Of a DNA stretch of 64,000 bases, positions 1,761 through 9,919 are shown piece after piece (within the stretch, counting starts at the first letter, position 1; each line of letters opens with the position of its first letter). The notes beneath the pieces are model-generated. The model was not told the origin of the DNA. It worked only from the letters and a program-made list of their open reading frames with translations, and did no database searches. Made by a program: the position numbers and the translations under genes. This DNA comes from Podarcis pityusensis (lineage: Eukaryota), in assembly GCA_964106645.2 (NCBI GenBank), contig OZ067044.1; one strand, 5' to 3'.

Positions 1761-3664
1761 GACTGAGATTAAGCATTAAAGAGGGATTCAAAGATATATT
1801 CCATATTCATAGCTCATTTTCACAGCAGGCTGGTTATGCAACTGAGTTCTCAGTTTCCTACCTATAAAATATCCTGTTCCTAGTGTGGCTTATTTCATCC
1901 ATTTTCATGAAGCAGTAATGGGCTTTACCTAAAAAGCCTGAAGCCAAATTCCATGTATCTGTATTTCCCCGCACCCCACCCTGCAATTACCATTCCCGAT
2001 ACTCTAGGTTCATTGCCCACATAAAACAATACCTTTTCATTTAAAGATTTTATTCTACCATCATAAGACGTTGCTTTTAGTGCTTGGAATCATCATCAGC
2101 TCTGTCATGCCTAAGAAAAAAACAATTATTATCATTTGCTTCTGGCACAGCAATCCCCATTTTGTGAGTAATGAATTATGAATTTAATACTTGTAAGAGC
2201 ATTACAAGATTAAATTAAAGTAATTAAATTCAAAATTACCTTTGAAAAAGAAGAGGAAGAGCTCTGCCAGAGCCCATCTAATTGTTTCCACAATTACACA
2301 TTTAAACCAATGCAGAACATCATCTTCATCATCCCGCCTTTTAACCTAAGGTCCCAGGCAGATTACAACAATTTTAAAAACAACATTAAATACCATGCAA
2401 AACAACTCAGTCACAAAAGTAGGGTGGGCCCTAAAAAGAATATGGAGGCATCTGAAAAGCATCCATGAACATGGGGACGTTTAGGGACCAGCAATGTCGC
2501 TCTTCTTGCTCAGTGTGGCTGCCATCACCCTAAGCTTGAGAATGATTGCTTGGTGGACCATGCTCTCATGACACCAAGGATTTAAAACTATTAAAAACTC
2601 CATTAAAAACCACTGGGTGTTTGATCACAGAATTAGTAAATCCTGAATTGGGGACACTTATCAGCCTGCCAGTGAGCCACATTCTTCAGCAGAACAGAGG
2701 GCATAAAGGCAGACAAGCCCCCAACCCCAAAAAAGTCTGAAACATTGACCCATCTCCAAGCAATTTATTGATACTTCTGATCTGGTTTGGTTATAACAAC
2801 TTCCAGATCAAGCCTGGGTCTTCTCTTTACTTGGCCTGACCTGACTGTCTTCCTTTCCTCCTGCTGCATTTGACCCCAGCCTGCCCTTTTCCCCAAACTA
2901 TTTGCCATCTCTACAATGCTGGCTTCTGTTGTTCTTGGATGGGTCCCTGGCTGGTGAAGATAAGCAACTCTGACATAAACAAAAACTTTTTTAAAAAAAG
3001 AGAGAAAAGGCATTTTAGTAATATCTATTTCTTGCTATGGCATTGAAGCCTTGTTGGTTTAATCCTGCAAACAGAACTGCTCATTTCTAAACAGGAACAA
3101 TTTTAGTTAGTCTCAGTTCAGGAGAGTGTATTACCTTCTCAAAAAAAGAGATCAGATAGATAAGTTTAATGATTTTAGGTCAGTGTTTAAGGTGAGAATA
3201 AAGACTGTTTACCCACTTTTTGAAGACACAGCCACATATACAGAGCACCACATTTAGCAAGTGCCAGCTTTCTGTGGTACCTGTATGGGTTGCATTAATG
3301 GTGTCCATGTGCAGATAGAATGGGATGCTTGGGGAACGAAAGGAAGGTGAAGTACTATTGCATGAATGAAAACCCATTCATGCATTGTTGGATTCCATCC
3401 TGTGTTTTTTTGGACACTTGGGATTGCCAGTGTTTACAATCAAATGCTGATATTCATCCAACCACAAATATTCACTATAATGCACCTAACTCAGAATAAG
3501 TCTCCAGGTGAATTTATAACGTTTTCCTTTCTACCAATTTTGGTTTCACATTATGTTATAGAAGCAAATGCAACTACCTGTGGAATAAACTGAATGTGTA
3601 TGGAAAGCCCAGATGTCATGTTTGCCAAAGGTTTGCTGTCCTGCAATTCCAACTCATTGCCTGA

Positions 3665-4072
3665 TGTGATGGGACGATGAGCTGCTTGTGTGTAAAATCC
3701 TAGTCCCTCAGAGTTTGGTCAAGTTTGCAAACCTCTGTCTGTAACGGAGCCCCTTAAACATGGCTCCGTCAGTCGCTGGCAGATTCCGACAGTGGTTGCT
3801 TTCGGAATCGCTTCCAACATAAAAGCTCCTTAACGGAAACACGTCTTCTGGACTCTCTGCGTGACAGTTTCCGGCGAGGAGTGGGTGTCCCTACAGGAGG
3901 TCCTGAAACCTCCCCACTGTTTTCGCTGGAAGTGTCTCTGAGCCATCCCTCCAGCTCCCTTTCCCTCAGCCCAGCTCCTCTCCCCCTACTGGTTCCCTCT
4001 TCAGCTGCTGAGTCTCTCCCAACCTGTGTGAGCCCTTTCACTTCCCTTCCTTCCGATGGCAGTTCCCTGACA
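3665..4072 (-). repeat. 3' LTR of the Gypsy element
   Basis: tgtgatggg...tccctgaca, identical to 7002-7409. Confidence 0.96.
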
Positions 4073-6744
4073 TCCACCTCCCCTCCAGGGCCCCCTTCAT
4101 CCCCTCTCGCCCCCTCCTCTACGGGCAGTGAGGAGGCAAAACCCCGGAATGAACTTCCTTCATCTTCCGATGTCCCGAACACTTCTCTCCACCTGTTGCG
4201 GTTCCTGGTCTCGAAGTACTCCTCCTCCTCAGAGTCCATCTCCCCTTCCCCTTCCGATTCCGAGAATCCTTCCAACTCCTCCTCCTCATCGGTGGTCCCA
4301 AAGTATTCCCTCCGGAACCTCTCCACAGGCTGAGGTTTCCTTGGGAACCTTTGATGGAACGTTTCTATCAATACCTCGTCATTGATATCTTCTGCCATTA
4401 CCCAAGTGTTTTCTGACTCCGGTTCTCCTTCCCACGCTACCAAATACTCCACCTGATCCCCCTTCCATCTGGCGTCGAGGATTTCTGCCACATGGCTGCT
4501 GCATTCCCTTTCTTCTATGACCGGTCCCCGAGTGGCCATCCCTTCTCGTCCCCCCTCATACGGTGACAGTAACGACCTGTGAAATACTGGGTGCAGTTTC
4601 ATGTGGTTGGGTAACCGGAGCCTGAAAGCCACTGGGTTGACCTGTTGAATGACCTCAAAGGGACCCAATCTCCTGGGTCTTAATTTCTTACAACCTCCTT
4701 TGAACGGCAACCCTTGGGTTGACAGCCACACCCTATCTCCCACCCTTATGGTTTCACCTTCCCTTCGGTTCTTGTCTGCCTGCCTCTTGTATTCTTCCTT
4801 CGCCCTTTCTAAGTTGAGTTGGAGCTGACGATGGATTGCTTCCATTTCTTCTACAAAATGCTCGGCTGCCGGGACACCCCATCTCTCCCCTTCTCCCCCT
4901 GGGAAAGCCCTGGGATGACACCCATAATTAGCCAAGAAGGGGCTCATCCCTGTGGACACATTCTCGGCATTGTTGTAGGCAAATTCCGCCAGCGCCAACT
5001 TTTCTACCCAGTCATTCTCTCTGTCATTGACATAACACCTCAGGTATTGCTGGAGGACCCCGTTTGCTCTTTCCGCCTGCCCGTTGGTTTCAGGGTGCCG
5101 GGCAGTCGAAAAGTTGACCTCCACCTGCAGTAAGCTCATGAGCTTCCTCCAGAACCTGGAAGTAAATTGTTTTCCTCGGTCTGAGACCACCCTCAATGGC
5201 ACCCCGTGCAACCTAAAAATGTGTTCTACAAATAACTTCGCTGTCTCTTCCGCCGTGACTGCATGCGAGCAGGCTACAAAGTGGCACATCTTTGTTAGTA
5301 GGTCTACCACCACCATGATGGCTGTTTTCCCCTTGGACTTCGGCAGATCAGTCATAAAATCTATCGACACTGCCTCCCAAGGTCGTTCTGGGGTTGGTAA
5401 GGGTTCTAATAGCCCCGCCGGTGCCCGCCTCTCCCCTTTGGCTCGCTGGCATTGCTCACACCCTCTTACATACTCCCGTACATCTTCCCTCACCTTAGGC
5501 CACCAAAATTCCCTGGTGACCAACCACATGGTTTTGTGTTGTCCAAAATGCCCCGCCGTGGGGCTGTCGTGCAACTGCTTGAGTACCCTCCCCCTTAAGT
5601 CTCCTTCAGGGATATACAGTGCCCCTTTGTAATACAAAGCTCCATTTCTTTCCTCGAAACCCCCTGGTTCCTCTCCCTCACCCCTAAGACCTCTGAGCTT
5701 ATTCTGGGCGTATTCATCATTCTCTGTTTCCTCTACCAGTTCTCTTTGTCCCACCAATGCCGCCCCACACACCCAGCGGTCCTCTGGAATGACATGTCTC
5801 TCTTCGTCCAGCACCGCCTGGACCTTGCCGGGATCCATGGCCAATCCCTTGTCTGACAGGCGATACCCCAGGAATTCCACCTCCTTGGTATGAAACTGAC
5901 ACTTCTCCAGTTTCACCCACAGCTGGTTGGCTTGCAGCCTGCTCAACACTTCTCTGACGTCTCTCACATGCTGCTCCTCATTCTCAGAATACACCAACAC
6001 GTCGTCTAAGAAGGCCACACAATTCTTGTAAAGCAAAGGCCCCAGGACGTGGTTCATAAACGATTGAAAGCACGCGGAGCCTCCTTGTAGGCCGAAGGGC
6101 ATAACTAAATATTCAAATGCCCCCAAAGGGGTGAACATGGTGGTTTTCCATTCATCCCCCTTCCTTATTCGTATCAGGTTGTACGCCCCCCTTAGGTCCA
6201 GTTTAGTAAAAATCTTTCCCTTCCTGACCCTTGTCAAAATGTCGTCAATCCTGGGCATAGGGAAAGCCACTGGTTCTGACACTGCATTTAAGGCCCTGAA
6301 GTCACACACAAGCCTCGGCTTGTTCGTGTTTTTTTTATCCACAAAAAACACTGGGCTGCCCCCCACCGCCCTGGACTCTCTGATGAACCCTCTCTTCAGG
6401 TTCTTGTCAATGAACTCTCTTAGCTCCTGCATCTCTCTGTCTGACATGGCGTACAGCTTGCCTACAGGGAGCTGTGCCCCAGGGAGTAAATTGATTTGAC
6501 AGTCAAAGGGTCTATGCGGGGGTAATTGGTCAGCTTCCCTTTCGCTGAAGACGTCGCGGAGATCTGCGTATTGTCGTGGTACCTTCACGTTCTCCGTTAC
6601 TTCAGTCCCTGCTAGGGTGGCTTGGGCCCCTGCCAAACCCTTTCCCTCTTTGCAGTGTTCTAAGCAATGTGCTGAACCAAAAGAAACCACTCTCTGATGC
6701 CAGCCCACCAGCGGATCATGTAACGCTAGCCAGCTCATCCCCAA
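3769..6744 (-). CDS. pol: Gypsy Pol remnant (991 aa): protease C-terminal tail, RT, RNase H deleted in frame, integrase (HHCC, DDE, GPF), chromodomain, acidic/basic tail
   Basis: ILGMSWL..HDP (PR end); FTKLDLRGAYN, MPFGL, FLDD (RT); HDSPTAGH...CEQC, IDFMTDLP, SDRGKQF, GQAERAN, RLGPF (IN); EYLVAWEG..ENTW (chromo). Confidence 0.93.
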   Translation of the reverse strand: MGMSWLALHDPLVGWHQRVVSFGSAHCLEHCKEGKGLAGAQATLAGTEVTENVKVPRQYADLRDVFSEREADQLPPHRPFDCQINLLPGAQLPVGKLYAMSDREMQELREFIDKNLKRGFIRESRAVGGSPVFFVDKKNTNKPRLVCDFRALNAVSEPVAFPMPRIDDILTRVRKGKIFTKLDLRGAYNLIRIRKGDEWKTTMFTPLGAFEYLVMPFGLQGGSACFQSFMNHVLGPLLYKNCVAFLDDVLVYSENEEQHVRDVREVLSRLQANQLWVKLEKCQFHTKEVEFLGYRLSDKGLAMDPGKVQAVLDEERHVIPEDRWVCGAALVGQRELVEETENDEYAQNKLRGLRGEGEEPGGFEERNGALYYKGALYIPEGDLRGRVLKQLHDSPTAGHFGQHKTMWLVTREFWWPKVREDVREYVRGCEQCQRAKGERRAPAGLLEPLPTPERPWEAVSIDFMTDLPKSKGKTAIMVVVDLLTKMCHFVACSHAVTAEETAKLFVEHIFRLHGVPLRVVSDRGKQFTSRFWRKLMSLLQVEVNFSTARHPETNGQAERANGVLQQYLRCYVNDRENDWVEKLALAEFAYNNAENVSTGMSPFLANYGCHPRAFPGGEGERWGVPAAEHFVEEMEAIHRQLQLNLERAKEEYKRQADKNRREGETIRVGDRVWLSTQGLPFKGGCKKLRPRRLGPFEVIQQVNPVAFRLRLPNHMKLHPVFHRSLLSPYEGGREGMATRGPVIEERECSSHVAEILDARWKGDQVEYLVAWEGEPESENTWVMAEDINDEVLIETFHQRFPRKPQPVERFRREYFGTTDEEEELEGFSESEGEGEMDSEEEEYFETRNRNRWREVFGTSEDEGSSFRGFASSLPVEEGARGDEGGPGGEVDVRELPSEGREVKGLTQVGRDSAAEEGTSRGRGAGLRERELEGWLRDTSSENSGEVSGPPVGTPTPRRKLSRRESRRRVSVKELLCWKRFRKQPLSESASD
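4073..4086 (-). promoter_or_regulatory. polypurine tract of the Gypsy element
   Basis: Sense GGAGGGGAGGTGGA directly before the 3' LTR. Confidence 0.85.
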
Positions 6745-6956
6745 TATAATGGGAGCTCCTCCCCAAACTTCTGCACCAATCCTGGTACCTTTCTGACGAG
6801 CTGGGTGTCTTTCCCCTTTTTGTCTGCATCCTGAGCCCTCCTCTCCTCAAGCCTCGCCGTCTGCAGCGCTAGCTGGACCTCCAACACCCGGTACCTTTCT
6901 TCCAGGCTTGGACCCGCTCCAGCTCCTGCTTCTCCGGTTCCGGCTGGGTTGCTCAT
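6735..6956 (-). pseudogene. gag: truncated gag N-terminus of the Gypsy element, joined out of frame to the end of protease by a deletion near 6760
   Basis: ATG about 45 nt downstream of the 5' LTR; coiled-coil-like LEERYRVLEVQL; sequence switches to the GAPIILGMSW protease frame at ~6760. Confidence 0.75.
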
Positions 6957-6988
6957 GATGCCTTCTCCTGCACAAGCTGCTCACGAAG

Positions 6989-6999
6989 ACTGTCGGAAT
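6989..6999 (-). promoter_or_regulatory. self-priming primer-binding site (Tf1-type)
   Basis: Sense ATTCCGACAGT, 2 nt downstream of the 5' LTR, is the exact complement of sense ACTGTCGGAAT within the LTR (7120-7130); no TGG tRNA-type PBS. Confidence 0.85.
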
Positions 7000-7001
7000 G
7001 C

Positions 7002-7409
7002 TGTGATGGGACGATGAGCTGCTTGTGTGTAAAATCCTAGTCCCTCAGAGTTTGGTCAAGTTTGCAAACCTCTGTCTGTAACGGAGCCCCTTAAACATGG
7101 CTCCGTCAGTCGCTGGCAGATTCCGACAGTGGTTGCTTTCGGAATCGCTTCCAACATAAAAGCTCCTTAACGGAAACACGTCTTCTGGACTCTCTGCGTG
7201 ACAGTTTCCGGCGAGGAGTGGGTGTCCCTACAGGAGGTCCTGAAACCTCCCCACTGTTTTCGCTGGAAGTGTCTCTGAGCCATCCCTCCAGCTCCCTTTC
7301 CCTCAGCCCAGCTCCTCTCCCCCTACTGGTTCCCTCTTCAGCTGCTGAGTCTCTCCCAACCTGTGTGAGCCCTTTCACTTCCCTTCCTTCCGATGGCAGT
7401 TCCCTGACA
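7002..7409 (-). repeat. 5' LTR of the Gypsy element
   Basis: Identical to 3665-4072; followed on the minus strand by the PBS and the gag ATG. Confidence 0.96.
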
Positions 7410-7760
7410 TCCGAGCTTACTTTCACATGGAGCTGGGCTGGGAAGCAAGCAAAGGCACAAGATCTTGCCATTCCACAGCCAGCAATGAAAACATTCTCAT
7501 TACCTGGAATTTGCCACCCACTACTATTCTGAGAAGCATGCAGCCAGTTTACTATGTGTTCAGCAGGCCTTCCTCACCACTTTTTAATATATTTATCCTG
7601 CGAATTCTGGTTTAAGCCAGTAAATAAGGAATACACAAGAGCTTCTATGGACCCAAAGATGAACAGTGGGCTAAGGTTTTATGTATTGATTCTAAACAAT
7701 AGATTCTTGTGTGCCCGTGCACTGAACATGTATATCCATTATTCATACATCCACTGAACA

Positions 7761-9783: not shown

Positions 9784-9919
9784 TAGGTAGAGGCAAACTC
9801 GGCCCTCCAGATGTTTTGGGACTACAACTCCCATCATCCCTGACCACTGGTCCTGTTAGCTAGGGATGATGGGAGTTATAGTCCCAAAACATCTGGAGGG
9901 CCGAGTTTGCCTATGCCTG
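9784..9919. mobile_element. palindromic hAT-derived MITE
   Basis: ~51-bp near-perfect inverted arms (9791-9841 / 9862-9912); degraded relatives at ~23370-23460 and ~42455-42550. Confidence 0.8.

Follow-up and report, generated by a model that had tools for sequence, protein, structure and literature searches.

How does an LTR retrotransposon begin reverse transcription when no tRNA primer-binding site (PBS) follows its LTR? The question is raised by an element on the minus strand of the window, the whole 64,000-nucleotide stretch of Podarcis pityusensis DNA analysed here. A sequence-only reading had proposed that the element primes from the 5' end of its own RNA, as does Tf1 of Schizosaccharomyces pombe, and that the cleavage releasing the primer must be supplied in trans for this copy. 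We conclude that the window holds a young copy, with internal deletions, of a chromodomain Ty3/Gypsy element whose family likely self-primes in the manner of Tf1, with 11 bases cut off its own RNA (probability about 0.85). This part of the proposal stands, well supported by covariation between families and by scars in young copies; the part concerning trans cleavage does so only to a limited extent. The mechanism itself is already known and published for this group and is not new: in the literature cited here it has been demonstrated in yeast Tf1 and inferred by sequence in vertebrate relatives.

A young chromodomain family and its deleted copy

By the features tested, the element is a chromodomain Ty3/Gypsy retrotransposon of the Tf1/sushi type (Table 1). 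Full-length copies measure 5,491 bp and contain a gag ORF, with a CCHC motif, and a pol ORF overlapping it in the -1 phase; a full-length sister copy has the domain order PR-RT-RH-IN, followed by SH3 and a C-terminal chromodomain, with the CCHC in gag. One candidate -1 frameshift site is a G_GGA_AAA heptamer lying in gag phase within the gag-pol overlap, at position 1278 of the full-length copy, in a part that the window copy has lost. Among named proteins, the nearest come from Podarcis muralis (95%), in support of a lizard host; Anolis matches at 50%, chromodomain Pols of fish, amphibians and fungi at 40-50%, and the best PDB match is Ty3.

Table 1. Features of the element in the window
Feature	Position	Strand	Remarks
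5' LTR, 408 bp, TGTCA...TCACA	7002..7409	-	identical to 3' LTR
3' LTR, 408 bp	3665..4072	-	identical to 5' LTR, TG..CA ends
11-nt self-primer; first A at 7130, preceded by C	7120..7130	-	predicted transcription start at that A
Predicted cut between primer base 11 and base 12 (strong-stop end)	7119..7120	-	scars
PBS, complement of self-primer, no TGG	6989..6999	-	exact match
LTR-terminal CA and 2-nt GC spacer, second pretzel duplex	7000..7003	-	predicted
U5 arm of third duplex, pseudoknotted to primer:PBS helix	7015..7027	-
Leader arm of third duplex	6971..6983	-
R hairpin 1	7079..7108	-	8-bp perfect core 7081-7088/7099-7106; 59.5% paired in register across families
Hairpin 2	7046..7074	-	near AATAAA site of other families; 55.6% paired across families
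U3/R inverted repeat, 8-bp core	7119..7147	-	could mask primer in U3-containing RNAs
gag start fragment	6735..6956	-	1,119-nt gag-protease deletion at about 6755-6763
pol remnant: RT, integrase, SH3, chromodomain	3769..6846	-	627-nt RNase H deletion at 5806/5807
100-codon pol tail encoded in PPT-U3-primer of 3' LTR	3769..4071	-
Polypurine tract (PPT)	4073..4086	-	final bases GGA
Left target-site copy, 5 bp, CCTGA	3660..3664	+	empty site
Right target-site copy, TCCGA	7410..7414	+	three bases replaced by PPT-end GGA (minus strand)

The family has 670 LTR-PBS junctions in the genome, with an identical PBS in 99 of the first 100 listed, and 54 full-length (5,491-bp) copies diverge by 0.22% on average. 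We sampled 77 copies (81 family loci minus four without one end or without a junction), a set that leans young, 20 of the 77 having been taken from the best-matching hits. The RNase H region is kept in 71 of these copies and gag- and pol-length frames are open in 54, and the deletions found among them all differ from one another. At one place (G000:C1:1,797,000-1,812,000, L204 in part) four LTR-PBS junctions lie 5,084, 4,447 and 5,083 bp apart, as tandem copies sharing LTRs, an arrangement resembling the tandem Tf insertions described in PMC11042837. A large share of the older family matches lies on a 38-Mb contig (C19), which may be a repeat-rich, possibly W-like chromosome.

In the window copy, a domain check of the ORF finds RT, IN and the chromodomain retained, while PR and RH were not detected in it; RNase H is present in the full-length sister. 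The premise of the trans-cleavage claim, an ORF without RNase H, is thus correct, but help in trans would be needed only if this copy were to move again, and the junction left by its RNase H deletion occurs a single time in the whole genome. Recurrence of that junction at several loci, the mark of a non-autonomous, trans-mobilised family, was not found genome-wide, and there is no sign that the RNase H-deleted form moved in trans. Because the junction is single and 71 of the 77 sampled copies keep RNase H, the window copy is most simply explained as a dead-end product of a complete parent, most likely not multiplied since.

Perfect 5-bp target-site duplications (TSDs) flank 72 of the 77 copies with both ends. 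The window TSD is imperfect; two related organisms (runs X20 and X21) have no insertion at this site, which rules out a recombined locus as the cause. The window copy and three others (L048, L233, L266) share an upstream target-site copy consisting of the first two bases followed by GGA in place of the target's last three, which suggests that a 3-nt PPT overhang was retained at the U3 end during integration. Another mismatched TSD is found at L240, and 6-bp TSDs at L239 and L253. Elsewhere the window contains a MITE-like pair of 57-bp inverted repeats (9785-9918) and two copies of a ~350-bp interspersed repeat in inverted orientation (1140-1488/10170-10517).

Primer, PBS and leader fold

The two sequence observations that started the proposal are correct. 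No TGG occurs within the first 25 nt past the LTR, and the plus strand at 6989-6999 reads ACTGTCGGAAT, which makes the PBS on the minus strand exactly complementary to 7130-7120; a second exact complement lies in the other LTR (3793-3783). The match has no in-register extension on either side, the PBS begins 2 nt (GC) past the LTR-terminal CA, and it is the sole 11-mer of the 2.9-kb internal region with a complement in the LTR. By chance, 19 of 20,000 dinucleotide-shuffled LTRs matched the first 20 internal bases this well.

Covariation between the PBS and the 5' end had been named as a check on self-priming, and the families bear it out. Pfam-seeded searches led to about ten related families at near 70% identity or less; 21 of 40 fetched loci from other families entered the comparison, the remaining 19 having no recognisable 5' LTR end or being repeat copies of family B (L082, L096, L098, L099). 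Among 28 LTR-leader junctions, 22 possess a perfect 10-11-nt complement in the LTR; the site begins 2 nt past the CA in 21 of them and 3 nt past it in the other. This count is biased towards the result at L100, L131, L135, L142 and L175, where the LTR end was set from a motif and not from a complete LTR pair. The six misses have one or two changes or an indel, and two of them had been picked as PBS mutants. Across 13 representatives, 129 of 143 primer positions form Watson-Crick pairs with their own PBS. Pairing between families averages 5.0 of 11, and none of 100,000 permutations did as well, a figure that is not a strict probability given the kinship of the representatives.

At least 10 of 11 pairs are kept with differing letters in 12 of these 13 representatives of about ten families. 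Even within one family, three primer bases differ between L086 and L170 and the PBS has changed to match. The first base of the spacer is G and the base following the primer is C in all 13. Uncompensated PBS changes occur in single copies (L178, L181, L182, L252, L270, L085), and PBS variants at CpG were found at one locus each, both without a compensating change in the primer. The comparison also revealed two further young self-priming families: L161-L164, with a 1,557-aa Pol ORF and LTRs of about 760 bp, and L142/L176, which numbers at least 120 copies and has gag frames of 307 aa.

Folding of the first ~150 nt, likewise put forward as a check, gives a stable leader: the RNA from 7130 to 6989 reaches -48.7 kcal/mol (z -3.85), and one of 200 shuffles was as good. 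The hairpin claimed at 7081-7106 has its perfect 8 bp, and the second stem exists with a 1-nt bulge. To these we add a 13-bp helix between U5 and the leader (12 of 13 paired), absent from the sequence-only reading, and a predicted pairing of C-A-G within the LTR end and spacer with 7117-7119, the second spacer base bulged, of only 3 bp. In folding models, the primer:PBS helix, its 3-bp LTR-end extension and the U5-leader helix together would form in vivo the three-duplex "pretzel" of Tf1. Prediction and covariation agree on this structure, with the third duplex weak in some families. Where leaders could be aligned (eight sequences), pairing in the primer helix is complete (100%), with four doubly changed pairs, and the pseudoknot helix is paired in 85.6% of cells with three pairs changed on both sides; the third duplex is better than shuffles (p<0.05) in only 5 of 13 representatives.

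We also considered a primer-masking hairpin in U3 as a general control element and rejected it as not conserved: the U3/R inverted repeat is clear only in the window family and its older subfamily, weak in L135 and absent in 13 of 16. AATAAA and ATTAAA are absent from the last 175 nt of the LTR in the window family (7002-7130 in the window) and in family B; AATAAA is found 70-83 nt before the LTR end in 12 of 13 other LTRs compared.

Start, cut and scars

Comparison of the primers suggests a transcription start at 7130 or an adjacent base. The first base of the primer, where the pairing ends, is the A of a pyrimidine-A step in 14 of the 16 LTRs compared, and in L086 and L161 it persists although unpaired. 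Four presumed RNA data sets, made up of contigs from diverged relatives, show no molecule ends. Retrocopies beginning at 7130 were sought and none was found, nor was a TATA box seen in the window family. The sequence TTTTATG at -31 was tried and rejected as proof of one, since this A/T-rich stretch is part of the pol code, its Leu-Leu-Cys codons belonging to a conserved Leu-Leu-Cys-Trp.

A cut after base 11 of the primer would leave minus-strand strong-stop DNA ending at base 12, so that errors of strand transfer would be expected on base 11 in both LTRs. We therefore searched the family LTRs for any base but T before base 12 and inspected all loci. The search yielded 40 LTR hits at 21 loci. 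At 18 of these, base 11 is substituted (12 T>A, 4 T>G, 2 T>C), in both LTRs at 16 loci, in a solo LTR at one and in one LTR only at another; in the other three elements U3 is deleted up to exactly base 12 and joined to a CTGCC or CTTCC look-alike. The expected background is about 0.3 loci per site, slightly underestimated from the 77-copy sample, in which 20 copies had been picked for identity over half the LTR. The same search returned 0 at position -1 and 0 at an internal site that shares the 8-nt context TCGGAATC. A base-11 change is present in only 1 of the 77 sampled copies. Three different bases, and the occurrence of both LTR haplotypes at position 102 among scarred loci, point to several origins of the changes. 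In a second family (the L142 group, at least 120 copies) the search gave 0 hits and the result was not replicated; power was low there, the most frequent error, A, being already the normal base. We infer from these scars that minus-strand strong-stop DNA of the window family ends at primer base 12.

Combining these observations, a round of priming might run as follows. Transcription would start at or next to 7130, and the 5' 11 nt of the RNA would fold onto the PBS within the three-duplex pretzel. By analogy with Tf1, the element's RNase H would cut between 7120 and 7119, and RT would extend the 11-mer across GC, U5 and R up to base 12. The product would then jump to the 3' R, sometimes with a miscopied base 11, and sometimes landing instead on a CTGCC/CTTCC look-alike in U3. 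Tf1 RT is described as adding nontemplated bases to most cDNA 3' ends (PMC11042837).

Other arrangements of start and primer deserve consideration. The cut could be the same and the start lie further upstream in U3, so that the primer exceeds 11 nt and has an unpaired 5' tail; the window family indeed has no TATA box at the expected distance, and with several longer starts the primer can still pair with the PBS. The pyrimidine-A at which pairing ends and the retention of this A where it is unpaired both speak against such a start, and with a start at 7150-7160 a U3 hairpin captures the primer, leaving a pair probability of 0.35 or 0.03 in the longer folds. We consider an upstream start unlikely. 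Priming by a host tRNA or tRNA fragment, with the LTR match incidental, is extremely improbable and largely refuted by the covariation, in which the PBS shifts in step with the LTR from family to family; no TGG lies in the first 25 nt, and Rfam gives no tRNA-like match at 6800-7450 (one chance hit, E 0.95).

Since scars alone cannot separate a cut end from a start, transcription might instead begin at base 12 (7119). In that case the base-11 errors would be ordinary -1 errors, and the 11-mer would be the last part of U3, taken as primer from the 3' LTR of the same RNA molecule or of one packaged with it. Base 12 is, however, a C after a T, which is not a usual initiator, and the primer would have to be cut out of the strand-transfer acceptor. 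Retroviruses do show -1 errors at the first strand transfer, but cap read-through gives G at -1 (PMC11998490), while A makes up 12 of the 18 changes here, with four G and two C. A start at base 12 is accordingly very unlikely in our judgement, and we retain the cut after base 11 of an RNA that probably begins at or next to 7130.

A Pol tail coded in U3, and known systems

The pol frame does not end at the chromodomain. It crosses the PPT and U3 and stops (3769) three codons past the primer. The same stop, or a stop inside the primer, is found in intact-frame copies of A, B, D, L135, L161, L167 and L171; at L176 the stop falls about 39 nt before the primer, and in the older copies L087, L088 and L100 the frame is broken. 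Eight within-group pairs give a dN/dS of about 0.22-0.49 for the tail, as compared with about 0.07-0.11 for the integrase core where computable. By this measure, the tail is under purifying selection through U3 and the primer. After the chromodomain motif, Pol extends for 155-232 aa in lizard-named hits versus 34-95 aa in most others. The tail terminus has a basic motif with a conserved Trp, and we can only guess at a role in nuclear or chromatin targeting. The idea that the primer keeps one reading-frame phase in every family was dropped, family D being different. The compensated primer in the 5' LTR of L170 contains a TAG stop, which indicates that the U3-coded tail can do without its last residues.

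Within the Tf1/sushi group, self-priming is reported as a common feature in fungi and vertebrates (PMC10085805, PMC6317226, PMC4600332). The primer of Tf1 is its first 11 bases, cut between 11 and 12 (PMC7175516). The lizard element resembles Tf1/Tf2 of S. pombe and Tj1/Tosmo/Tcry1 in its 11-nt self-primer, two flanking duplexes, predicted cut after base 11 and chromodomain integrase (PMC10085805, PMC7175516, PMC4600332). Unlike the fission-yeast Gags, which are described as having no CCHC (PMC10085805), it has a CCHC in gag and two -1 overlapping ORFs; unlike in Tf1, its pol frame passes through U3 and the primer. Furthermore, the Tf1 mechanism has been shown by experiment, whereas the lizard family offers genomic footprints only. 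Predicted self-priming, a -1 gag-pol overlap and a chromodomain Gypsy organization are shared with vertebrate Tf1/sushi chromoviruses of the V-clade, such as sushi-ichi and Amn-ichi/ni/san (PMC6317226, PMC10085805).

Two other systems offer partial parallels. In plant CRM and some Reina chromoviruses the pol frame also runs past the PPT into the 3' LTR, and in CRM a CR motif lies beyond the PPT and priming is by tRNA (PMC3605345); in the lizard element a classical chromodomain precedes the PPT, and it is the extra acidic/basic tail that overlaps the self-primer. At the U3/R border of MLV and HIV-1, an error hotspot is reported one base past the end of the strong-stop template, in both LTRs (PMC11998490); the lizard hotspot differs in lying 11 nt inside the predicted R and in being mostly T>A rather than a change to G. 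Our literature search found no report of this lizard family or of cut-site scars in self-priming elements, and none of a U3-coded tail in vertebrate chromoviruses, a point that Butler et al. 2001 and the Levin papers may cover.

What the family adds to the known mechanism is unusually direct in-genome evidence for the position of the cut, made accessible by 670 junctions and a divergence of 0.22%. We lean towards reading its copies as a record of self-primer cleavage in a vertebrate, with the cut placed to one base, and towards the same 11 bases serving as transcription start, primer and selected Pol codons; the triple use would follow, in this reading, because all of U3 codes for a conserved tail of the integrase. 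Junction errors and mis-jumps among young copies may offer a general way to map primer ends and start sites in any LTR family, and a protein-coding U3 would represent an unusual triple use of LTR sequence.
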